DNA of 64,000 bases from Longimicrobiales bacterium (GTDB lineage Bacteria; Gemmatimonadota; Gemmatimonadetes; Longimicrobiales; Gaopeijiaceae): positions 1,312,001 to 1,376,000 of the forward strand of contig CBDFIQ010000002.1 of the NCBI GenBank assembly GCA_965248195.1. The letters are read 5' to 3'. Positions 33,355 through 49,354 of this stretch are shown one piece after another. Under the pieces are notes generated by a model, which was given only the letters and a program-made list of their open reading frames with translations, was not told the origin of the DNA and ran no database searches. The position numbers were made by a program, and so were the translations under genes. Each line of letters begins with the position of its first letter. Positions within the stretch are counted from its first letter, which is position 1.

Positions 33355-34730
33355 GGTAGTGTCCCTAGATTTGTGTAAAAGCGGATAAGCTGGACAGGAG
33401 GGAAAGAAAAACGGAAGCTCCTCTGTTGTTGTTCACTGTCACATGAACCCGGGAGTCCGGGTCTGCAGAGCAGGCTCGGAACCGGAGAGGAGCTTCCGAT
33501 GCAAGAGATTGTGGAGATCGGTCGGGCCACGCAAGACGAGCTACGCGATGATTTGCGCGAGCTGTTTCAAGGCGCGATCCGGCTGACGCTCGAGATGGTG
33601 CTGGAAGAGGAGCTGAAGGCCATGGTAGGTGCACGCCGCTTCGAGCGGGTGGGAAGCCGGAAGGACCATAGGAACGGCACATACCTGAGGCGGCTGCTGA
33701 CGAGCCTGGGGCAGATCGAGGTCGCCATGCCCCGGAGCCGGGACAACGGTTCGCCGGCCGACGTGATCGGCCGCTACCAGCGCAGGAGCCCCGAGCTCGA
33801 CGAGATGATGGTCGAGGCGTATGTGAGCGGCGTGTCACAGCGCAAGATGGGCGACGTCACCGAGGCGCTGATGGGCGAGCGTGTTGGGCGCTCGACGGTG
33901 AGTCGTGTGGCAAAACGGCTCGACGAGGCCGTGGAAGGGCTGCGCCGTGCGCCGATCGAGGGGCCTCACCCCTATCTGTACCTGGACGCCACGTTCTTGG
34001 ACGCCCGCTGGGCCCGCAAAGTCGAGAACGTGAGTGCGCTCGTGGCGTATGCAGTGGGCCCTGAGGGTCACCGACGGCTCCTGGCCGTCACGCTGGGCGC
34101 TGAGGAGTCGCAGCAGAGCTGGTCGGAGCTCCTCGAGCAACTCCAGGACCGCGGCCTCGGCGGTGTCGAGCTCGTGATCGCCGATGAGCACGCAGGCCTG
34201 GCAGCTGCGGTCCGCCGCTTCCTGCCCGAGGCACGCCGTCAGAGGTGTACGGTCCATCTGCAGCGTAATGTGGGGGCGAGGGTCCCCCACCGCCTACGCA
34301 AGCGCGTGGCGCGTGAGGTCTCGGTGATCTTCCAGACATCCGGACTCGCCGAGGCGAAGAAGCTCCTGGGCGAGTTCGGCGCACGCTGGAAGAAGGAGCT
34401 GCCCGAGGCCGTGGAGGTCCTGGAGCGGGGCTTCGGGGCAGCGACGCAGTTCTACGCGTTCCCCGAGGCGCACTGGCCCCGGCTGCGTACCACCAACAGC
34501 CTCGAGCGGCTGCACGGCGAGATCAAACGCAGGATCAAGGCCGCCGGCGCCTTCCCGGACCGGGCCAGCGCCCTCAGGCTCATCACGGCCGTCGCACTCA
34601 GGACCACACACGTCTGGGGCGACCGGCGTTACCTCGACCTCTCACTCCTCCAGAAACAGGAGGTCGCCCAAGCAGCCTAGCCGAAGGCGAGGAGCTTCCT
34701 CCGCTTTTACACACAAATCGGGACTTGACC
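33355..34730 (+). mobile_element. IS256-family element, copy A (1376 bp), no DR
   Basis: Transposase 33499-34680 (YLDAT, IADEH, QRCTVH, RTTNSLER); imperfect IRs ggtagtgtccctagatttgtgtaaaagcgga / tccgcttttacacacaaatcgggacttgacc. Confidence 0.95.
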
Positions 34731-36491: not shown

Positions 36492-37861
36492 GGTCAAGTC
36501 CCGATTTGTGTGTAAAAGCGGAGGAAGCTCCTCGCCTTCGGCTAGGCTGCTTGGGCGACCTCCTGTTTCTGGAGGAGTGAGAGGTCGAGGTAACGCCGGT
36601 CGCCCCAGACGTGTGTGGTCCTGAGTGCGACGGCCGTGATGAGCCTGAGGGCGCTGGCCCGGTCCGGGAAGGCGCCGGCGGCCTTGATCCTGCGTTTGAT
36701 CTCGCCGTGCAGCCGCTCGAGGCTGTTGGTGGTACGCAGCCGGGGCCAGTGCGCCTCGGGGAACGCGTAGAACTGCGTCGCTGCCCCGAAGCCCCGCTCC
36801 AGGACCTCCACGGCCTCGGGCAGCTCCTTCTTCCAGCGTGCGCCGAACTCGCCCAGGAGCTTCTTCGCCTCGGCGAGTCCGGATGTCTGGAAGATCACCG
36901 AGACCTCACGCGCCACGCGCTTGCGTAGGCGGTGGGGGACCCTCGCCCCCACATTACGCTGCAGATGGACCGTACACCTCTGACGGCGTGCCTCGGGCAG
37001 GAAGCGGCGGACCGCAGCTGCCAGGCCTGCGTGCTCATCGGCGATCACGAGCTCGACACCGCCGAGGCCGCGGTCCTGGAGTTGCTCGAGGAGCTCCGAC
37101 CAGCTCCGCTGCGACTCCTCAGCGCCCAGCGTGACGGCCAGGAGCCGTCGGTGACCCTCAGGGCCCACTGCATACGCCACGAGCGCACTCACGTTCTCGA
37201 CTTTGCGGGCCCAGCGGGCGTCCAAGAACGTGGCGTCCAGATAGGGGTGAGGCCCCTCGATCGGCGCACGGCGCAGCCCTTCCACGGCCTCGTCGAGCCG
37301 TTTTGCCACACGACTCACCGTCGAGCGCCCAACACGCTCGCCCATCAGCGCCTCGGTGACGTCGCCCATCTTGCGCTGTGACACGCCGCTCACATACGCC
37401 TCGACCATCATCTCGTCGAGCTCGGGGCTCCTGCGCTGGTAGCGGCCGATCACGTCGGCCGGCGAACCGTTGTCCCGGCTCCGGGGCATGGCGACCTCGA
37501 TCTGCCCCAGGCTCGTCAGCAGCCGCCTCAGGTATGTGCCGTTCCTATGGTCCTTCCGGCTTCCCACCCGCTCGAAGCGGCGTGCACCTACCATGGCCTT
37601 CAGCTCCTCTTCCAGCACCATCTCGAGCGTCAGCCGGATCGCGCCTTGAAACAGCTCGCGCAAATCATCGCGTAGCTCGTCTTGCGTGGCCCGACCGATC
37701 TCCACAATCTCTTGCATCGGAAGCTCCTCTCCGGTTCCGAGCCTGCTCTGCAGACCCGGACTCCCGGGTTCATGTGACAGTGAACAACAACAGAGGAGCT
37801 TCCGTTTTTCTTTCCCTCCTGTCCAGCTTATCCGCTTTTACACAAATCTAGGGACACTACC
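36492..37861 (-). mobile_element. IS256-family element, copy B (1370 bp), no DR
   Basis: Transposase 36542-37717 is 391 aa: in-frame 6-bp deletion (YLYLD to YLD) and Q to R substitution relative to other copies. Confidence 0.95.
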
Positions 37862-40210: not shown

Positions 40211-40648
40211 ATGGCCTCCCCGGAACAACAAGCAGTGCCTTCGACCTGGAATCGGAATGTCGACTACAACGCCGGGACCGATTTTCTCGACGTCTCCGTC
40301 ACCGGCAACAACCCCCCGCCCCCTGCCGCCCCAGCGGGCCAAACAAGGAACGACACCGCGGATGAAATCACCGTCTTTAGCGTAGATCGAGGGGGCGGCG
40401 GCGCCAGGATCCTTTACCACGCGCCCGGCAACGAAGTCGAACTCACCGGGATCGAGATGAAGAACGGAGATCCCATACCCGACCACCTAGAGGTTTTCGT
40501 GAACCCTCCCGGTACATTGCTGAGGCTTACCGTCACGAAGGACGACGATGACACCTCCGACGAGGTCTGGGACTATTACGTCCAAGGCACGGTCGATGGC
40601 GAGGCAAAGCAGACCGAGGATCCAAGGATCCGCAATCGCGGCCAATAA
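40211..40648 (+). CDS. Small acidic beta-rich protein ending in DPRIRNRGQ
   Basis: TAAGGAG RBS; 145-aa ORF; paralog immediately downstream. Confidence 0.8.
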   Translation: MASPEQQAVPSTWNRNVDYNAGTDFLDVSVTGNNPPPPAAPAGQTRNDTADEITVFSVDRGGGGARILYHAPGNEVELTGIEMKNGDPIPDHLEVFVNPPGTLLRLTVTKDDDDTSDEVWDYYVQGTVDGEAKQTEDPRIRNRGQ

Positions 40649-40706: not shown

Positions 40707-41123
40707 GTGGCAGCTTGGAACCGGAAGATCGAAATCATTAAGCCGAGAAACCGGAAAGAGTATTTGGGCTGCAGGAAGTCCCGAGTGAACGCCAACCCGC
40801 CCCCCGTGCCCGGCCATGACCCTAGGACCGACACGGGCCCTACCATCAACCACCTACAAGAAAGATCGAGGGAAGAACGGTGCCAAGATCAAATACCACT
40901 CCATGCGTAATGAAGTGGTCCTCACCGGGATCAGGATGAAGAACGGAAGCCGTCCCTCCGACCTAACTGTTAACCCCGTCTCCCAAACGCTACTCGAACT
41001 TACCAGCAAAGGGAGGAGGACACGGACTGGAAGTATTACGTCCAAGGGTATTACATGGATGAGAAAAACAAGAAGGTTGAGCTGGAGACCAAGGATCCGA
41101 GGATCCGCAATCGCGGCCAATAA
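40707..41123 (+). pseudogene. Basic paralog of the 40211 protein with two compensating frameshifts
   Basis: AAGGA RBS; segments WNRK, NPPP, DRG..GAKI.YH..NEV.LTGI.MKNG, W.YYVQG and DPRIRNRGQ spread over frames; indels near 40848 and 41012. Confidence 0.8.
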
Positions 41124-41270: not shown

Positions 41271-42620
41271 TCACGGATCGAAATTCAGCAACGCGTGTCG
41301 TCGCTCCGGGATCCTGGACCAGGGATCGATCTCCACGACGCGATAAAGTGGAGAGAACCCCAGCTTCAACTTCAACTCCATCACGGCTTCCCGCAGCGAT
41401 GCGGGGATGGCTCCCTCGGATAGCTCCCGTCCGTTCTCCTCTCTGCCGCCAGTTTCCGCTCGACCGAAGAGGTCGTTCTGAGACGTCGCGGGACCGAACT
41501 GGAAGAACTCCACCATGAGGGCCTCGACCGCACGCAGGGGAGGGGACAGGGCCATCCGAGCTCGGATGGTGAAGGCGATTCGGTCCCGCTGGGACGTGGG
41601 CTCTCGAAGGATCGTCTCCAGGGCCCACGAGCCCCCACCCTCCAGACGCGCCCCGAGGCGCACTCCCTGTATGCTCCGGCCTTTGCGCTCCAGACGGGCC
41701 AGCGTCCGTTCCAGGAGCCGGTCGAGAGCGCCGTGGAGCGTGTCCACTTGGCCCACGGGGGTGTGGAATTCCATAGAGGCGCGGATCGGCTGCGGGCGGT
41801 AGTACGGCTGGACGGGGTCGATGCGCTCACCCGTGGCCCACATCAGGGCCCTCTGTCCGTCGGGGCCGAACTGTCCGACCAGGGCAGAGCTCGGAAAGCG
41901 AATCAGGTCGCCCAGGGTCTCTATGCCGAGTCGCTCGAGTCGCTCGGTCATGACCGCATCCACCGGGAGCACGGAGACAGGACACGGGTTCAGGAATGCC
42001 GGCAACTCCTGGTCCGGAACGATCACGGGCCGGCCCGGGCCCGCTCCGGCTGCGGCCACCCAGGCCCCGAATTTTCCGGGGGCCCATCCGATTCTCGTGG
42101 CGGCCACTAGTGGGCGAGGGAAAATCTTCAGGAGCGTGTGCAGAACCCTCTCCACCTGGCGCGATGGTGAGCCGTACAGCCGGCCGAGCCCATCCATGCC
42201 GACGAAGATCCGCCCACGGCCGGCGGGCTCCACGATGGGGCTCAGGCCCGACAGGGTTTCCAGAAGCTCTTCCTGCGTAGCGTCGTAGTGGGCGGGATCG
42301 GGCTCCAGGAGGGTGAGGGAAGGGCAGAGGGCGACGGCCTGCGAGATGAGTTGCCCCGGCCGTACGCCTGCGATCGAAGCGCGCTCGGAGACTTGCCATA
42401 TGGTTCTCCGGGTGTTCTCCCCCGGAGAGAGAAGGGCTACGGACGTGCTGTCCAACTCGGGAGTTCGAACCAGTTCCAGCCGAAGCTCGAACGTGGGCAG
42501 CCAGGCGCACAGTGCCTGGCGGCTTCCACGCTGCCGGGTGGCGATGGGGCCCCTGTGATCCCACCCACAAACGCTGGGGTGGGTGGGAACACCATACATG
42601 CGTGAACGGGGCTTCGACAT
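41271..42620 (-). CDS. imuB: ImuB-like inactive Y-family polymerase
   Basis: GVRPGQ..SQA.ALCP, SPIVE, LERLGIETLGDL and PWSRIPERR; catalytic acidic motifs absent; start uncertain. Confidence 0.75.
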   Translation of the reverse strand: MSKPRSRMYGVPTHPSVCGWDHRGPIATRQRGSRQALCAWLPTFELRLELVRTPELDSTSVALLSPGENTRRTIWQVSERASIAGVRPGQLISQAVALCPSLTLLEPDPAHYDATQEELLETLSGLSPIVEPAGRGRIFVGMDGLGRLYGSPSRQVERVLHTLLKIFPRPLVAATRIGWAPGKFGAWVAAAGAGPGRPVIVPDQELPAFLNPCPVSVLPVDAVMTERLERLGIETLGDLIRFPSSALVGQFGPDGQRALMWATGERIDPVQPYYRPQPIRASMEFHTPVGQVDTLHGALDRLLERTLARLERKGRSIQGVRLGARLEGGGSWALETILREPTSQRDRIAFTIRARMALSPPLRAVEALMVEFFQFGPATSQNDLFGRAETGGREENGRELSEGAIPASLREAVMELKLKLGFSPLYRVVEIDPWSRIPERRHALLNFDP

Positions 42621-42652
42621 GGTCGGATGAGTCATCGGAGAAAACGAAACGA

Positions 42653-42671
42653 TACCGAATAAAAACCGAAA
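42653..42671 (-). promoter_or_regulatory. Candidate operator TTCGGT-N5-TTCGGT upstream of imuB, also at 28172-28190 and 32380-32397
   Basis: taccgaataaaaaccgaaa; near-identical copies elsewhere in the island. Confidence 0.55.
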
Positions 42672-42751
42672 GTCGAAGATAGGTCGAAAAATACAAAGGA
42701 GCAAGCCATCCCCGCCCTCACCGAGCGGACGCTCGATCACCCCGGCTCGTT

Positions 42752-42991
42752 GTGCCATGTGCGTGTACGGTGAAGGCAGTAGCCAAGGAGACAGGTCGGG
42801 CACCATCGACAGTCCGAGAGTGGCTCATCTCCGGGGCTCTATGTGGCTACAAGCTCAACGGTCGTGACTGGCGTGTTTCCCGCGATTCTCTCCGCAACTA
42901 TCTCCACGCGCAATCCACCCAGGCGACCGAGACAGAAGGTGAGGTGGGCAAGGTGGACATCGCGGCTTGGCGGAGGGTCCGGGGAGCATAA
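42752..42991 (+). CDS. Excisionase-like helix-turn-helix protein (probably 5'-truncated)
   Basis: TVKAVAKETGRAPSTVREWL..GAL.GYKLNGRDWRVSR matches the MerR-like/HTH_17 pattern. Confidence 0.7.
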   Translation: MPCACTVKAVAKETGRAPSTVREWLISGALCGYKLNGRDWRVSRDSLRNYLHAQSTQATETEGEVGKVDIAAWRRVRGA

Positions 42992-43171: not shown

Positions 43172-44547
43172 GGTCAAGTCCCGATTTGTGTGTAAAAGCG
43201 GAGGAAGCTCCTCGCCTTCGGCTAGGCTGCTTGGGCGACCTCCTGTTTCTGGAGGAGTGAGAGGTCGAGGTAACGCCGGTCGCCCCAGACGTGTGTGGTC
43301 CTGAGTGCGACGGCCGTGATGAGCCTGAGGGCGCTGGCCCGGTCCGGGAAGGCGCCGGCGGCCTTGATCCTGCGTTTGATCTCGCCGTGCAGCCGCTCGA
43401 GGCTGTTGGTGGTACGCAGCCGGGGCCAGTGCGCCTCGGGGAACGCGTAGAACTGCGTCGCTGCCCCGAAGCCCCGCTCCAGGACCTCCACGGCCTCGGG
43501 CAGCTCCTTCTTCCAGCGTGCGCCGAACTCGCCCAGGAGCTTCTTCGCCTCGGCGAGTCCGGATGTCTGGAAGATCACCGAGACCTCACGCGCCACGCGC
43601 TTGCGTAGGCGGTGGGGGACCCTCGCCCCCACATTACGCTGCAGATGGACCGTACACCTCTGACGGCGTGCCTCGGGCAGGAAGCGGCGGACCGCAGCTG
43701 CCAGGCCTGCGTGCTCATCGGCGATCACGAGCTCGACACCGCCGAGGCCGCGGTCCTGGAGTTGCTCGAGGAGCTCCGACCAGCTCTGCTGCGACTCCTC
43801 AGCGCCCAGCGTGACGGCCAGGAGCCGTCGGTGACCCTCAGGGCCCACTGCATACGCCACGAGCGCACTCACGTTCTCGACTTTGCGGGCCCAGCGGGCG
43901 TCCAAGAACGTGGCGTCCAGGTACAGATAGGGGTGAGGCCCCTCGATCGGCGCACGGCGCAGCCCTTCCACGGCCTCGTCGAGCCGTTTTGCCACACGAC
44001 TCACCGTCGAGCGCCCAACACGCTCGCCCATCAGCGCCTCGGTGACGTCGCCCATCTTGCGCTGTGACACGCCGCTCACATACGCCTCGACCATCATCTC
44101 GTCGAGCTCGGGGCTCCTGCGCTGGTAGCGGCCGATCACGTCGGCCGGCGAACCGTTGTCCCGGCTCCGGGGCATGGCGACCTCGATCTGCCCCAGGCTC
44201 GTCAGCAGCCGCCTCAGGTATGTGCCGTTCCTATGGTCCTTCCGGCTTCCCACCCGCTCGAAGCGGCGTGCACCTACCATGGCCTTCAGCTCCTCTTCCA
44301 GCACCATCTCGAGCGTCAGCCGGATCGCGCCTTGAAACAGCTCGCGCAAATCATCGCGTAGCTCGTCTTGCGTGGCCCGACCGATCTCCACAATCTCTTG
44401 CATCGGAAGCTCCTCTCCGGTTCCGAGCCTGCTCTGCAGACCCGGACTCCCGGGTTCATGTGACAGTGAACAACAACAGAGGAGCTTCCGTTTTTCTTTC
44501 CCTCCTGTCCAGCTTATCCGCTTTTACACAAATCTAGGGACACTACC
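43172..44547 (-). mobile_element. IS256-family element, copy C, 9-bp DR AACGAGGCG
   Basis: Transposase 43222-44403; DR at 43163-43171 and 44548-44556. Confidence 0.96.
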
Positions 44548-45032
44548 AACGAGGCGCTGACCGCCTGCTTGTAAGGCCGGAGAAGGGCGTAGTCGTGGCG
44601 CGTCACCTACTCGAACCGAAGAGCCTCGAGGGGATCCGTCGTGGGGGCTCGTGAACCGGCAGGTACGAAGCGACTCGCGTCCACCCTCCAGAACCGCCAA
44701 CGCCACGCAGGCCCGAAGGGGCCGCCAGCTTAATCGCCTGTGCGCTTTGAGACCTATCGACTAGGTCTGCCAGACAGCAGTAATAGCTTGTCAGGTGTCG
44801 TCTCGGCCCAGTCGGATCGAATCTACTACTCAGTTACTCAGTAGCCGAAGGAGGCAAAAAGTACCCCTTAGTCGGATGAACCTCAAAAGAGTTATTCACA
44901 AAATGCATGCAAAACTGTGTAAATACGCGATAAATCCGGACCTACAGGTAGCCACAGAGGCACCCGGTATCTGGCATACTAGTTGCACCTTGGGTCAATT
45001 CTAGTCCACCAATATTTGGGAAAAAGTAACTC

Positions 45033-46811
45033 ATGATATCTAATCGATCAGGTTCGCATCAATCAGAATCTATGCAAGCCCTTGTTCCCATGGTGGATCT
45101 GTTCGCTGTGCTTGCGGTTGTGTTCATGATTCATTCGAACGAAGAAATCACTACCGCCCAAACGGAAAATGATGAAAGGATACAAGGGGTTGTTGCAGAG
45201 GTCCAAGAGGCGAGAAACGCGCTAGAAGCGATTGACGACGCAGAACGGGCCAGAAGAGAGCGCAGAGAATTGATGGCAAACGAGGCGACTAAGTCGCTAG
45301 AACAAATTCAAGAAGAGCGAGCGAGACAAGCAGAAGAGTTACTGGCGCAATTCACCGAAATGTTAGCGGCTCAACAAAGTAGCACCGATGCGGAATATGA
45401 AAACATCCTAGCTCGCATTGAAAACGATCTGGAACAACAGACGCAGACGGACCTGGAAGAGACAAGAGCAGAGCTGGAAATAGACCTTGAAACGCGGAGA
45501 TCGGAGTTGGCGGCGCAACAAGAACAACGCATAGAAGAGGCGAAAGAGGAATTTGACAAAATAATTTCGTCCACGGAAACGAGGCTTGCCAGTACCCAAG
45601 ATGCGCTCGATGATGCCGAACAGGCACGTGTTGACGCGTTGGCCAGACAGGCAGCACTCGACGAACAAAGGCAGGTCGAGGTGGCCAGGGCAGAGCAGGA
45701 GCTCAGAGCGCAAGCCGATCGTCAAGCCGCGAACTCGAGAAGGGAAACAGAGGCCGCGTTAGCAAGAGCCGAACAGGCACGAATTGACGAATTGGCCACA
45801 CAGGCAGCAGCACTCGACGAACAAAGGCAACTCGAGGTGGCCAGGGCAGAGCAGGAGCTCAGAGCGCAGGCCGATCGTCAAGCCGCGAACTCGAGAAGGG
45901 AAACAGACGCCGCGTTAGCAAGAGCCGAACAGGCACGAGTTGACGCATTGGCTGCACAGGCAGCAGCACTCGACGAACAAAGGCAACTCGACTTGGCCAG
46001 GGCAGAGCAGCAGCTCAGAGCGCTAGCCGATCGTCAAGCCGCGAACTCGAGAAGGGGAACAGACGCCACGCTAGCAAGAGCCGAACAGGCACGAGTTGAC
46101 GCATTGGCTGCACAGGCAGCAGCACTCGATGTGGAACGTCAAAGCGACCTAGACGCTCAGAGAACTGCGCTTGAACAAGAAAGGGAAAAAGCCCTGGCAG
46201 ACGCAGCGGATGAGCTTGCGCCTTATGTCCAGGCAGTCGAAGCCAAGAACCAGATCGTCAAAGAGCTCGATGAGAACTTCGGGGACTTCGATAATTCAGC
46301 CGTCGAAATAGACCCAGAGACAGGAACGGTAAGACTCCACTTTCAGGAGTCCTATTTTGCGATCGGATCTCACGAACTATCAGGAGAAATGAAGAGTTTT
46401 CTCAGAGCGATGATTCCCAGATATGCGCAAAGCATTTACGGAAACAGGGACGCTGCGGAGCAAGTAGAGTCTCTAAACATTTCAGGGATGGCATCGCCCA
46501 TCTATCAGGGAGTGTATATCGACATTTTCGATACATCTCCCGAAACACAGGAAGCACGCGAATACAATATGGCGCTGAGTAACCGACGGGCGGACGCCCT
46601 GTATGCCTTCATCTTCGATGAAGATGAGATGGGTGACTATGCGTTTCGTACTAGAATGGAAGCAGATATGAGCATTGCGGCACTGGGCTTCCAGAACGCA
46701 ACCCCTGTTAGGGATGCACTAGTGGGCAAACCTGCACGGTGCATACAGTATGATTGCCAGCAGGAGCAGGCTACGGTATTGCAGTTTCAGCTTTTTTCGG
46801 GAGGGTTGTAG
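45033..46811 (+). CDS. ZorB/MotB-like protein with long coiled-coil repeat stalk and OmpA-like C-terminal domain
   Basis: TM with Asp (MVDLFAVLAVVFMI); about 350-aa helical stalk; YFAIGSHELS...LNISGMAS...YNMALSNRRADAL. Confidence 0.75.
   Translation: MISNRSGSHQSESMQALVPMVDLFAVLAVVFMIHSNEEITTAQTENDERIQGVVAEVQEARNALEAIDDAERARRERRELMANEATKSLEQIQEERARQAEELLAQFTEMLAAQQSSTDAEYENILARIENDLEQQTQTDLEETRAELEIDLETRRSELAAQQEQRIEEAKEEFDKIISSTETRLASTQDALDDAEQARVDALARQAALDEQRQVEVARAEQELRAQADRQAANSRRETEAALARAEQARIDELATQAAALDEQRQLEVARAEQELRAQADRQAANSRRETDAALARAEQARVDALAAQAAALDEQRQLDLARAEQQLRALADRQAANSRRGTDATLARAEQARVDALAAQAAALDVERQSDLDAQRTALEQEREKALADAADELAPYVQAVEAKNQIVKELDENFGDFDNSAVEIDPETGTVRLHFQESYFAIGSHELSGEMKSFLRAMIPRYAQSIYGNRDAAEQVESLNISGMASPIYQGVYIDIFDTSPETQEAREYNMALSNRRADALYAFIFDEDEMGDYAFRTRMEADMSIAALGFQNATPVRDALVGKPARCIQYDCQQEQATVLQFQLFSGGL
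45615..46145 (+). repeat. 156-bp (52-aa) tandem repeat, about 3.4 copies
   Basis: gccgaacaggcacg starts at 45615, 45768, 45924 and 46080 (spacing 153, 156, 156). Confidence 0.93.
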
Positions 46812-46859
46812 GCCGCTCAAGCGGCATATTGACGCAAGCTTTTGGGTTAGGGAGTCATA

Positions 46860-49257
46860 ATGTTTAAATACGTATTCTCTTTAATTCTGGTGGTAATACT
46901 CTACTTTGTATTCTTTTTTGATATTGCGCTTACCAATGAGGCAATCGGAATCCTGTTTGTCGCGGGCATCCTTGGTTGTTTGGTTCTATTCTTATTTTTC
47001 AAGTTTGGTTTGCACTACAAAATAATGGGGCTGAATAGATTTGCGAATGCATTCTATTATTCTGTTTTCGAGTATAAGAAAGCTCAAGTAAGCCCTTCAG
47101 ACCTGACCTATATGGACAGTGTAAGGGAACAGGCGGAGGTCGCCCTTGCTGCAAACTTTGATCCCACATTGAAGACTGCCGACCTTAAGATTCCCGCTAC
47201 CCTCTATTCAGGAAAGGACCGGTCAAGTCCCGATTTGTGTGTAAAAGCGGAGGAAGCTCCTCGCCTTCGGCTAGGCTGCTTGGGCGACCTCCTGTTTCTG
47301 GAGGAGTGAGAGGTCGAGGTAACGCCGGTCGCCCCAGACGTGTGTGGTCCTGAGTGCGACGGCCGTGATGAGCCTGAGGGCGCTGGCCCGGTCCGGGAAG
47401 GCGCCGGCGGCCTTGATCCTGCGTTTGATCTCGCCGTGCAGCCGCTCGAGGCTGTTGGTGGTACGCAGCCGGGGCCAGTGCGCCTCGGGGAACGCGTAGA
47501 ACTGCGTCGCTGCCCCGAAGCCCCGCTCCAGGACCTCCACGGCCTCGGGCAGCTCCTTCTTCCAGCGTGCGCCGAACTCGCCCAGGAGCTTCTTCGCCTC
47601 GGCGAGTCCGGATGTCTGGAAGATCACCGAGACCTCACGCGCCACGCGCTTGCGTAGGCGGTGGGGGACCCTCGCCCCCACATTACGCTGCAGATGGACC
47701 GTACACCTCTGACGGCGTGCCTCGGGCAGGAAGCGGCGGACCGCAGCTGCCAGGCCTGCGTGCTCATCGGCGATCACGAGCTCGACACCGCCGAGGCCGC
47801 GGTCCTGGAGTTGCTCGAGGAGCTCCGACCAGCTCTGCTGCGACTCCTCAGCGCCCAGCGTGACGGCCAGGAGCCGTCGGTGACCCTCAGGGCCCACTGC
47901 ATACGCCACGAGCGCACTCACGTTCTCGACTTTGCGGGCCCAGCGGGCGTCCAAGAACGTGGCGTCCAGGTACAGATAGGGGTGAGGCCCCTCGATCGGC
48001 GCACGGCGCAGCCCTTCCACGGCCTCGTCGAGCCGTTTTGCCACACGACTCACCGTCGAGCGCCCAACACGCTCGCCCATCAGCGCCTCGGTGACGTCGC
48101 CCATCTTGCGCTGTGACACGCCGCTCACATACGCCTCGACCATCATCTCGTCGAGCTCGGGGCTCCTGCGCTGGTAGCGGCCGATCACGTCGGCCGGCGA
48201 ACCGTTGTCCCGGCTCCGGGGCATGGCGACCTCGATCTGCCCCAGGCTCGTCAGCAGCCGCCTCAGGTATGTGCCGTTCCTATGGTCCTTCCGGCTTCCC
48301 ACCCGCTCGAAGCGGCGTGCACCTACCATGGCCTTCAGCTCCTCTTCCAGCACCATCTCGAGCGTCAGCCGGATCGCGCCTTGAAACAGCTCGCGCAAAT
48401 CATCGCGTAGCTCGTCTTGCGTGGCCCGACCGATCTCCACAATCTCTTGCATCGGAAGCTCCTCTCCGGTTCCGAGCCTGCTCTGCAGACCCGGACTCCC
48501 GGGTTCATGTGACAGTGAACAACAACAGAGGAGCTTCCGTTTTTCTTTCCCTCCTGTCCAGCTTATCCGCTTTTACACAAATCTAGGGACACTACCAAAG
48601 GACCCTTATCTGGCCAAACTGCGGGCCAAGATTCGAGAAGCAGGGAAAATCAAGCTCGAAGCACGCCATCTCGATAGAAAAGCGGATGTGTTGTTAGGAA
48701 AAACCCAAGAAGAATTGGTGGATAAGGGCCTTACCGACAAAAAACCCACCAAAATACTAGATCGAGTGTTTGAGATCGAGAGTGGTGCGGCAGCTATTAT
48801 CGACTTGACCGTCGATGAAATTAGAAATCAAGGCTACCGTCGTGCGCCGGATTATGAAATCATCACCCAGATCGCGCTTGACGAGAATCCATATTTTTCG
48901 CGCACCTTTAGGTTCTTTGACTCGGAGGACATTGTTGGCGTCCTTTTCCGCACGCCCTTCATGATAATTCTGATCGGGATCATTGGTACATTTGCAGGCT
49001 TCTACCTGGCGTTGAGTCAGGGTGGCGATATCAAATCTGGTGCTTCCGTGGCAATTATCAGTTCGCTGGTTGGTCTTCCTGTTTCGTTATTTATGGAATA
49101 CCTAAACACGTTGTTTCCAGACGAAGGTCGATACCGACAGGCGTTCAACAAATTCAAAGTAACTCTGGAAATGCTCTTCAATCACGAACAAGAGCTTAAT
49201 AAAGGCCAAGGCGAAGGTGAAATGGAGCTCGCATTAAGCCGAACAAGAACGAGTTGA
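46860..49257 (+). pseudogene. ZorA/MotA/TolQ-like membrane protein interrupted by IS256 copy D
   Basis: Removing the IS and one DR gives a 1014-nt ORF (337 aa): two N-terminal TMs, a soluble domain, then TPFMIILIGIIGTFAG and GASVAIISSLVG channel-like helices. Confidence 0.75.
47221..48596 (-). mobile_element. IS256-family element, copy D, 8-bp DR AAAGGACC
   Basis: Transposase 47271-48452; DR at 47213-47220 and 48597-48604. Confidence 0.96.
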
Positions 49258-49354
49258 CGCATTGGCCGAACAGGAAGCAGAACTCGAAAAACAAAGGCTA
49301 CTGGAGCTGACCAGAGCAGAGCAGGAGCTGGGCCGACCCCCTAACCCACGATGA
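49238..49354 (+). repeat. Solo diverged copy of the 52-aa repeat, out of frame at the end of the MotA-like gene
   Basis: Reads AEQERVDALAEQEAELEKQRLLELTRAEQELGRPPNPR*. Confidence 0.85.

Follow-up and report, generated by a model that had tools for sequence, protein, structure and literature searches.

Two adjacent genes in a 64,000-nucleotide stretch of DNA from a Longimicrobiales bacterium (contig CBDFIQ010000002.1 of assembly GCA_965248195.1, positions 1,312,001 to 1,376,000 of the forward strand; this whole stretch is hereafter called the window, and its coordinates are used throughout) very probably encode a genuine membrane complex of the ZorAB type, the stator pair of the Zorya defence systems. 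We found that the pair departs from Zorya in four respects, namely the gene order (the B subunit is encoded before the A subunit), the linker of B, the tail of A and the linked effectors; what is new is this two-gene form, its spread, and a tail on the A subunit copied from the stalk of B. Our preferred reading, held tentatively, is that the pair forms a wall-tethered, ion-conducting envelope motor or sensor that is not a member of Zorya. The Zorya motor is thought to sense wall damage, and both the role of such motors outside defence and the origin of the ZorA tail are in question; the present clade retains the channel and the wall anchor, lacks the effectors and has the rod on the subunit predicted to be periplasmic, and one of its branches gained a cytoplasmic tail by a duplication that can still be traced. 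In the literature covered (mainly papers open without subscription, and stator surveys without their supplements) no B-first, long-stalk relative of Zorya was described. The copy in the window is itself dead, and its interest lies solely in having led to the family.

The gene pair and its damage in the window

An earlier note, made from the letters of the window, had described gene 1 as carrying a membrane helix with an aspartate, about 350 residues of coiled coil and an OmpA-like domain, and gene 2 as carrying helices of the MotA/TolQ/ZorA type. Both descriptions held: gene 1 has Asp22, a stalk of ~360 aa and a ZorB-like terminal domain, and gene 2 contains both of the membrane motifs that were quoted, and its predicted fold resembles ZorA, ExbB and TolQ. 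The features of the locus are as follows.

44841..45032, + strand: upstream region common to the module in a relative (locus L007); start of the blastn match between the window and L007
45033..46811, + strand: gene 1, ZorB/MotB-like B subunit, 592 aa, intact (gene call, profiles, fold search)
45066..45140, + strand: sole predicted membrane helix of B, holding Asp22 (codon 45096-45098; hydropathy)
45141..46229, + strand: predicted periplasmic helical stalk of B, ~360 aa, including 156-nt repeats
46230..46808, + strand: ZorB-like peptidoglycan-binding domain with Y511, N512, L515 and R519 and the invariant Cys570 and Cys575
46860..47220, + strand: 5' part of gene 2, codons 1-120, with two predicted membrane helices and the start of the cytoplasmic domain
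47213-47220 and 48597-48604: 8-bp target duplication bracketing the insertion sequence (IS)
47221..48596, - strand: IS256-family element, 1376 bp, with a Mutator transposase at 47271-48452 (Pfam Transposase_mut, E 5e-100)
48605..49257, + strand: 3' part of gene 2, with the remaining cytoplasmic domain and two channel helices (Thr249, Ser273/274)
49237..49354, + strand: remnant of the A-subunit tail, out of frame (84% identity to the gene 1 stalk repeat over 49237-49329)
43172..44547, - strand: second, identical IS256 with a 9-bp duplication, just upstream; context, outside the module

Genes 1 and 2 are co-oriented, with 48 nt between them. The region at 44841..45032 is likely a promoter or leader carried along with the pair; a promoter scan found no sigma-70 consensus site on its + strand.

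Hydropathy gave a single hydrophobic segment in gene 1 (residues ~12-36), which contains Asp22, and the P-x-x-D motif of this helix is kept in 86 of 88 full-length B proteins. Residues ~40-395 hold no proline and two glycines, are rich in A, E, R and Q, and include a 156-nt (52-aa) repeat in four copies, two of them partial (45611-46171); the stalk would measure ~54 nm if straight. The last 200 residues matched the PADLOC profiles ZorB1 (E 3e-21) and ZorB2 (E 2e-12), and the NCBIfam ZorB2 model gave 33 bits, far below its 400-bit cut-off. When an AlphaFold model of gene 1 (predicted local distance difference test, pLDDT, 64 overall and ~80 in parts of the C-terminal domain) was compared with known structures in Foldseek, all three matches below E 0.001 were ZorB chains (top 8vvi and 8qyd_F), and the domains of Pal, MotB and OmpA ranked after them. 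Y511, N512, L515 and R519 have the spacing of the wall-binding residues Y151, N152, L155 and R159 of E. coli ZorB (PMC11946911; here and below, papers are cited for the parts of them that were available). The invariant Cys570 and Cys575 would fit a periplasmic location. No match to Pfam MotB_plug was found in B at E up to 1, and residues 23-84 are modelled as one helix, with low confidence in that stretch.

Direct profile evidence for gene 2 is weak (PADLOC ZorA, E 0.003). Pfam at E up to 1 gave no MotA, MotB or OmpA match for either gene of the window, and sequence searches of the PDB returned only non-significant matches to ZorA and ZorB (E 0.13 and 0.18); a Pfam match to MlaE (E 5e-4, below the cut-off) was set aside as a match between hydrophobic helices. 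Pfam being silent, the assignment of A and B is based on PADLOC, on the fold searches and on a sister family, described below, that passes the PF01618 cut-off. The profile of the A family matches this sister family at E 1e-14 to 1e-18, and one of the two sister-family A proteins scanned passes the Pfam MotA/ExbB cut-off (PF01618; 24.3 vs 22.9 bits). The rebuilt gene 2 has four hydrophobic segments (near residues 1-19, 29-47, 230-258 and 265-287). All 56 of the A sequences compared carry Thr249 and Ser273, both of which align with ZorA2, and the loop joining the channel helices is shorter by ~13-15 residues than that of ZorA2 or of the sister family. The fold of A was modelled on P0054, an intact homologue of gene 2 (pLDDT 67). 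Among 48,161 chains this model ranked E. coli ZorA first (8qyd_A; Z 10.9, root-mean-square deviation (rmsd) 6.7, 210 aligned), type II ZorA second (Z 10.6, rmsd 2.6, 90 aligned) and ExbB third (Z 10.5, rmsd 4.7, 207 aligned), with TolQ at Z 8.5. A beta-sheet element is present in the cytoplasmic domain of ZorA (PMC12505986); the model has no strand in that domain, in which residues 104-168 have pLDDT below 50. The view that this is a distinct pair of the ZorAB/MotAB type is thus supported by profile, fold and conserved residues, and the fold comparison that the earlier note proposed turned out in its favour for B and, by rank, for A.

Removal of the IS256 element and one repeat leaves a gene 2 of 1014 nt with a single stop (337 aa), as the earlier note had reconstructed, and the rebuilt gene is colinear across the insertion site with more than 100 homologues, which rules out that the frame was restored by chance. 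The read-through is therefore in frame, but the 337-aa product was not the intact ancestor: comparison with the relatives L068 and L007 places a frameshift in the tail near codon 332 and a truncation ~30 codons further on, and this loss of frame makes the 3' part of the gene stop early. Gene 2 of the window thus carries two separate lesions, the IS256 insertion and the frameshifted, truncated tail; frameshifted or truncated tails are also seen in the relatives L072, L080 and L086. Since 82 of the 103 full-length IS256 copies in the host genome are identical to the one in gene 2, the insertion is recent, as had been proposed, and part of a genome-wide burst, and it is therefore no sign of selection on the gene pair locus. 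The window itself holds IS256 copies at 33499-34680, 36542-37717, 43172-44547 and 47221-48596. Genome-wide, duplications of 8 or 9 bp were found at 57 copies and none at 45, and the copies without a duplication may reflect rearrangement between copies.

Gene order, spread and the A-subunit tail

A search with the 3' half of gene 2 recovered 507 proteins among 2470 candidates; the best 120 of these 507 are 65-89% identical to the query. From the matches we assembled 141 loci (61 genome loci and the best 80 of 208 metagenome matches), of which 120 have more than 400 nt upstream of A. The B gene lies directly upstream of A in 119 of these 120 and downstream in none, so that the order read earlier in the window is that of the family. 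The exception, L067 (9938-11764) from an Acidobacteriota, has a tailed A of 608 aa with its 5' part missing and no B upstream. A survey of stators reports B downstream of A (10.1101/2024.07.22.604496; PMC12505986), and surveys that take the gene downstream of A as B (PMC12505986) would mis-pair this clade. By record labels, most carriers are Gammaproteobacteria; the others are a few Myxococcota, one Acidobacteriota and one Longimicrobiales, which is the nearest named relative. The B stalks of the family range from 264 to 670 aa (40-100 nm) and vary in length by whole repeats. Ratios of non-synonymous to synonymous substitution (dN/dS) lay at 0.11-0.15 in comparisons with two distant loci and at 0.2-0.4 in those with four close loci; one value reached 0.75, at very low divergence. 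The pair is under purifying selection.

Prevalence was counted in sets of mostly incomplete genomes, each centred on a carrier. The pair was found in 3 of 61 relatives (host included, all in the host genus), in 2 of 301 genomes of the host phylum (host included), in 2 of 301 Myxococcota and in 2 of 121 genomes of the family of G086. Five of 400 Gammaproteobacteria gave matches, two of them to the window's family and one of these being the search centre. In the gammaproteobacterial family of G079, 42 of 74 genomes match (27 the window's family, 32 the sister family and 17 both, counted from the match table). The pair is thus common in one gammaproteobacterial family and rare elsewhere. One record of this set, L029 (G080), is titled Haliangium; the genome tool places it in the family of G079, its A protein groups there as well, and the label looks unreliable. 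Homology between the window and L007 is limited to 44841-49329 and the flanks differ; the pair therefore moves as a unit. In G011 a different IS interrupts the B gene, and most of A has been lost. No relative was found among viral contigs, plasmids and phages.

The earlier note had placed the long stalk on B and not on A. This holds for B, but intact A proteins of the window's subclade also carry a long extension. Among 132 complete A proteins, 110 extend less than 100 aa past the motor domain and 22 extend further, up to 560 aa; in close relatives of the window the intact tails measure 120-560 aa. In each of three loci tested, the A tail aligned with the stalk of its own B at 44-54% amino acid identity (159-243 bits; best of 30 shuffles, 69-90 bits) and at 68-77% DNA identity, and the motif at the end of the B stalk also terminates many of the A tails. 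A quick tree was built from 62 dereplicated A domains together with the window and six sister sequences, its root resting on a long branch; in it the tailed rows form one clade of 15 (Shimodaira-Hasegawa approximate likelihood-ratio test (SH-aLRT), 100), nested among tailless proteins and including the window. L075, in this clade, carries a tail though it was unlabelled by the tail pattern. One subclade, to which the window belongs, thus gained a cytoplasmic A tail by copying the B stalk.

A profile of the B domain recovered 500 proteins among 1.84 billion representatives, and after the window's own family its matches include many proteins of 500-800 aa with the same layout, the named members being 'microtubule-binding proteins' of Bdellovibrionota. 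A second pair of this kind (family 2, Bdellovibrio type) is present in many of the same Gammaproteobacteria, without a third gene, and with B before A in 12 of the 12 loci in which both genes were called. Its members at L178-L182, L184-L190 and L199-L201 have a B of 767-980 aa and an A of 297-308 aa, and the family 2 pair often lies near an operon of the phosphate/phosphonate-type ATP-binding cassette (ABC) class. In a B-domain tree of 49 rows, with five ZorB of type II (none of type I or III) and 17 MotB/OmpA, the window's family groups with the Bdellovibrio type (96/91), the long-stalk group comes out as a clade (100/98), and the five ZorB are sister to it relative to MotB/OmpA, long branches meeting at that point. 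MotB proteins from carrier genomes form a separate clade. P0310, a long-stalk B of 790 aa, branches outside both families and hints at a possible third lineage. P0444 is likely Bd1167, having the same annotation and 498 aa, which with the 24 N-terminal residues seen in P0434 make up the 522 codons of Bd1167; Bd1168 (301 aa) is a candidate sister A that matches in place and size only. Several carrier genomes also hold a short MotB-like family of 214 aa (L214-L216, L218), on its own long branch.

The sister operon, neighbouring genes and function

We tentatively favour a role of the pair as a tether or strain sensor of the cell envelope rather than in phage defence. The Bdellovibrio sister operon looks like a life-cycle-regulated chromosomal operon. 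Bd1167, Bd1168 and Bd1169 gave 932/35, 1354/23 and 527/14 reads per kilobase per million (RPKM) in attack/growth phase, with the column order inferred from the sheet name (PMC3627812), and their products are abundant in the proteome, with 41, 16 and 52 unique peptides and a common mid-cycle dip (PMC12546842). The predator that carries this sister is genetically tractable, and both expression data and a mutant library have been published for it; the 'microtubule-binding' label of the sister is misleading.

Under the preferred reading, five A subunits would surround two B helices (a 5:2 stoichiometry, predicted and likely by analogy), as in other pairs of this kind, whose A5B2 rings let ions through past the Asp of B (PMC11946911; PMC11890865). 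The stalk and wall-binding domain of B would be periplasmic, and the four A helices would leave both large soluble parts of A in the cytoplasm. Strain or displacement between wall and membrane would open the channel, and protons would be conducted past Asp22 when the wall-anchored stalk is strained, both coupling and gating being predictions of this scheme. Because the stalk is far longer than the gap between membrane and wall, quoted as ~9 nm in E. coli, and varies by whole repeats, it would serve as a slack or slanted tether and not as a ruler; and since the loop that forms the blocking collar of ZorA is mostly missing and no MotB plug was seen, the B helix itself is the likely gate. No effector being linked, the output would consist of an ion flux or of a force exerted on a partner encoded elsewhere, which would bind the conserved cytoplasmic domain of A.

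The long stalk also raises the possibility, in our view very doubtful, that the pair works passively, as a membrane-to-wall tether or a scaffold in the periplasm, whose stalk stiffens or spaces the envelope and in which ion flow is irrelevant. The stalk does dominate B and is highly variable, and Bd1167 has been described as a crescentin-like coiled-coil protein (PMC2797640). However, conservation is highest at the Asp, Thr and Ser of the ion path, and nearly every locus retains A next to B; a passive tether would need neither.

Neighbouring genes, picked with a crude open reading frame (ORF) picker, gave no conserved third gene common to the 141 loci, the top ORF clusters being shadow frames of the pair or generic families. 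At the 61 genome loci, PADLOC at E 1e-15 matched 7 of the 104 nearest flanking proteins and 9 of the 92 in second place, nearly all of them generic (methyltransferase, ABC ATPase, kinase, MutY, subtilase, HIT). A plausible defence gene lies within two genes of the pair at 3 of the 61 loci (JetB at L014, a helicase at L043, PDC-M21B at L045); a rate of 1.5%, taken from the abstract of a review (PMC13434031) and not from a matched background, predicts some 3 of the 196 flanking proteins. Models of the Zorya effectors (ZorC/D, ZorE, ZorF/G) matched none of the 196. A ZorE query hit 1 of 50 carrier genomes, directly behind a separate, canonical Zorya II pair. As controls, the canonical pair in L183 scored E 2e-86 and 2e-90, and plasmid Zorya II loci showed the order A-B-E; a search for EH_Signature (ZorC) found 0 of 50 carriers, but it found no match in control genomes either and is uninformative. 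The canonical pair of L183 (7548-9483, G089) is followed by a short ZorE-like frame, which may be decayed, and shares its genome with a copy of the reversed pair. The named neighbours of the pair are metabolic or transport genes. The neighbourhood check proposed by the earlier note thus returned few plausible defence neighbours and no shared third gene, and its suggestion of an anti-phage role gains little from it or from the regulation of the Bdellovibrio operon; its statement that effector, flagellar and Tol/Ton genes are lacking beside the pair agrees with the flank scans.

A phage-defence role without an effector, or with one acting in trans, nevertheless has to be weighed, and we regard it as unlikely, though the most probable of the alternatives. 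A phage breaching the wall would pull the stalk and open the channel, and the cell would depolarise (abortive infection or dormancy) or signal to an unlinked nuclease, the A tail of the window's subclade recruiting an effector as that of ZorA does. Several observations speak for such a role and, with some others, weigh against the preferred reading. The nearest characterised relatives are defence proteins, ZorB being nearest by profile, fold and tree, and a long cytoplasmic A tail was gained independently. The pair occurs in several phyla at low frequency and is patchy outside one family, its GC is below that of its flanks, it sits at differing sites in relatives, the flanking genes are not conserved even within the gammaproteobacterial family of G079, and breakage is frequent (two of the three copies in the host genus are broken); patchiness, low GC, unconserved flanks and breakage also fit defence genes. 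The structural case for A is open to question too: the model is modest (pLDDT 67, with residues 104-168 below 50), unrelated helical bundles reach Z 10.1-10.2 in the same list, and Foldseek of P0054 gave ExbB, ZorA and TolQ, none of them below E 0.001. Finally, the attack-phase-expressed Bdellovibrio operon is dispensable for predation, the like-named genes having transposon-sequencing fitness W of 1.5-2.0 and no predation defect (PMC6561027). Against defence stand the lack of an adjacent effector, the paucity of defence neighbours, the negative ZorE query in 49 of 50 carrier genomes, the reported need for the other Zorya components in defence (PMC11946911; PMC11890865), the high conservation of the pair, and the lack of a match in viral contigs, plasmids and phages.

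The pair might instead energise an envelope machine to which it is not linked (for surface motility, a pilus, secretion or import), as AglRQS, TolQR and ExbBD do; it would move along the wall or pull on it via the stalk and thereby power a partner whose gene lies elsewhere. In favour of this, ExbB and TolQ rank high among the fold matches of A, expression of the Bdellovibrio sister operon is at its peak in the motile attack phase, and many carriers are sediment organisms by record labels. We find this reading improbable: no third gene is common to the 141 loci, the two genes move alone between phyla, which is unexpected for part of a larger machine, and B ends in a wall-binding domain and not in an ExbD/TolR domain. 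FliG was found in only 25 of 50 carrier genomes, many of them incomplete, and not in the host genome (91.8% complete), and a flagellar stator was rejected on these grounds. A Tol/Ton energiser was likewise rejected because the B domain folds like ZorB/Pal and not like ExbD/TolR; a scan at E 1e-25 found no TonB or TolA partner among the 93 nearest flanking proteins.

A bolder version of the envelope sensor, which we think rather unlikely, is that this minimal, mobile two-gene relative of Zorya is a complete wall-strain sensor, with ion flux as its whole output and a ZorA-like tail re-invented later. A periplasmic cable of 40-100 nm would gate the channel with no effector, and copying of the cable onto A would yield matching rods on both sides of the membrane. 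If true, the clade would show in extant organisms how an envelope-sensing motor gave rise to ZorAB.

In the window, GC is 0.53 in gene 1 and 0.41 and 0.47 in the two parts of gene 2, compared with 0.62 overall; GC at third codon positions (GC3) is 0.51 in the pair and 0.75-0.78 in two core genes, and among the gene calls in the window only the pair has a GC3 near 0.5. Of the earlier description of low-GC genes inside an island, the low GC of the pair stood, and the rest of the supposed island is not strongly low in GC3. The surrounding region (~23.4-49.4 kb) holds chiefly IS elements and kinase, cyclase and Y-family polymerase genes. An ImuB/Y-family polymerase-like gene (- strand) and a small excisionase-like HTH_17 gene (+ strand) lie at 41271-42991, just upstream of the IS, and are possibly a remnant of an integrated element. 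At 40211-40648 lies a gene for a 145-aa protein with no family match, followed at 40816-41100 by a similar frame that is apparently degenerate.

Comparison with known systems

With MotA-MotB and PomA-PomB the pair has in common four predicted A helices, the Asp of the B helix and an OmpA-like wall-binding domain, and it differs in having no adjacent flagellar genes and no match to the MotB plug. With TolQ-TolR and ExbB-ExbD it shares the fold of the A subunit; its B, however, is an OmpA-like domain on a stalk and not an ExbD/TolR domain, and no TolA/TonB neighbour was seen. A MotAB-like pair of Alphaproteobacteria (NCBIfam PRK09039) has a long stalk on its MotB-like subunit and no flagellar context, but a search with its NCBIfam models gave no match at E up to 10. 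Bd1167-1169 of Bdellovibrio is similar in its long stalk and B-first order, and differs in the motif of the B helix, in A (~25% identity, three predicted helices) and in the third gene, Bd1169 (794 aa), which has no counterpart beside the window's family or the gammaproteobacterial family 2.

The closest likeness is to ZorAB (E. coli type I, 8qyd; Shewanella type I, 8vvn; Sulfuricurvum type II, 8vvi), with which the pair shares the Asp of the B helix, the fold of the wall-binding domain with its Y-N-x-x-L-x-x-x-R residues, channel helices of A with Thr and Ser, and, in a low-confidence part of the model, a membrane segment of B that runs on as a continuous helix with no plug of the MotB type. 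The differences are that B precedes A, whereas Zorya orders are zorABCD, zorABE and zorGABF (PMC11946911); that ZorC, D, E, F and G are not linked to the pair; that four A helices are predicted instead of three, with a short periplasmic loop; that a stalk of 264-670 aa separates the B helix from the wall-binding domain, whereas in ZorB the two are joined without a long linker (PMC11946911) and five ZorB2-type controls measure 223-235 aa as a whole; and that a long A tail occurs only in one derived clade, where it is a copy of the B stalk.

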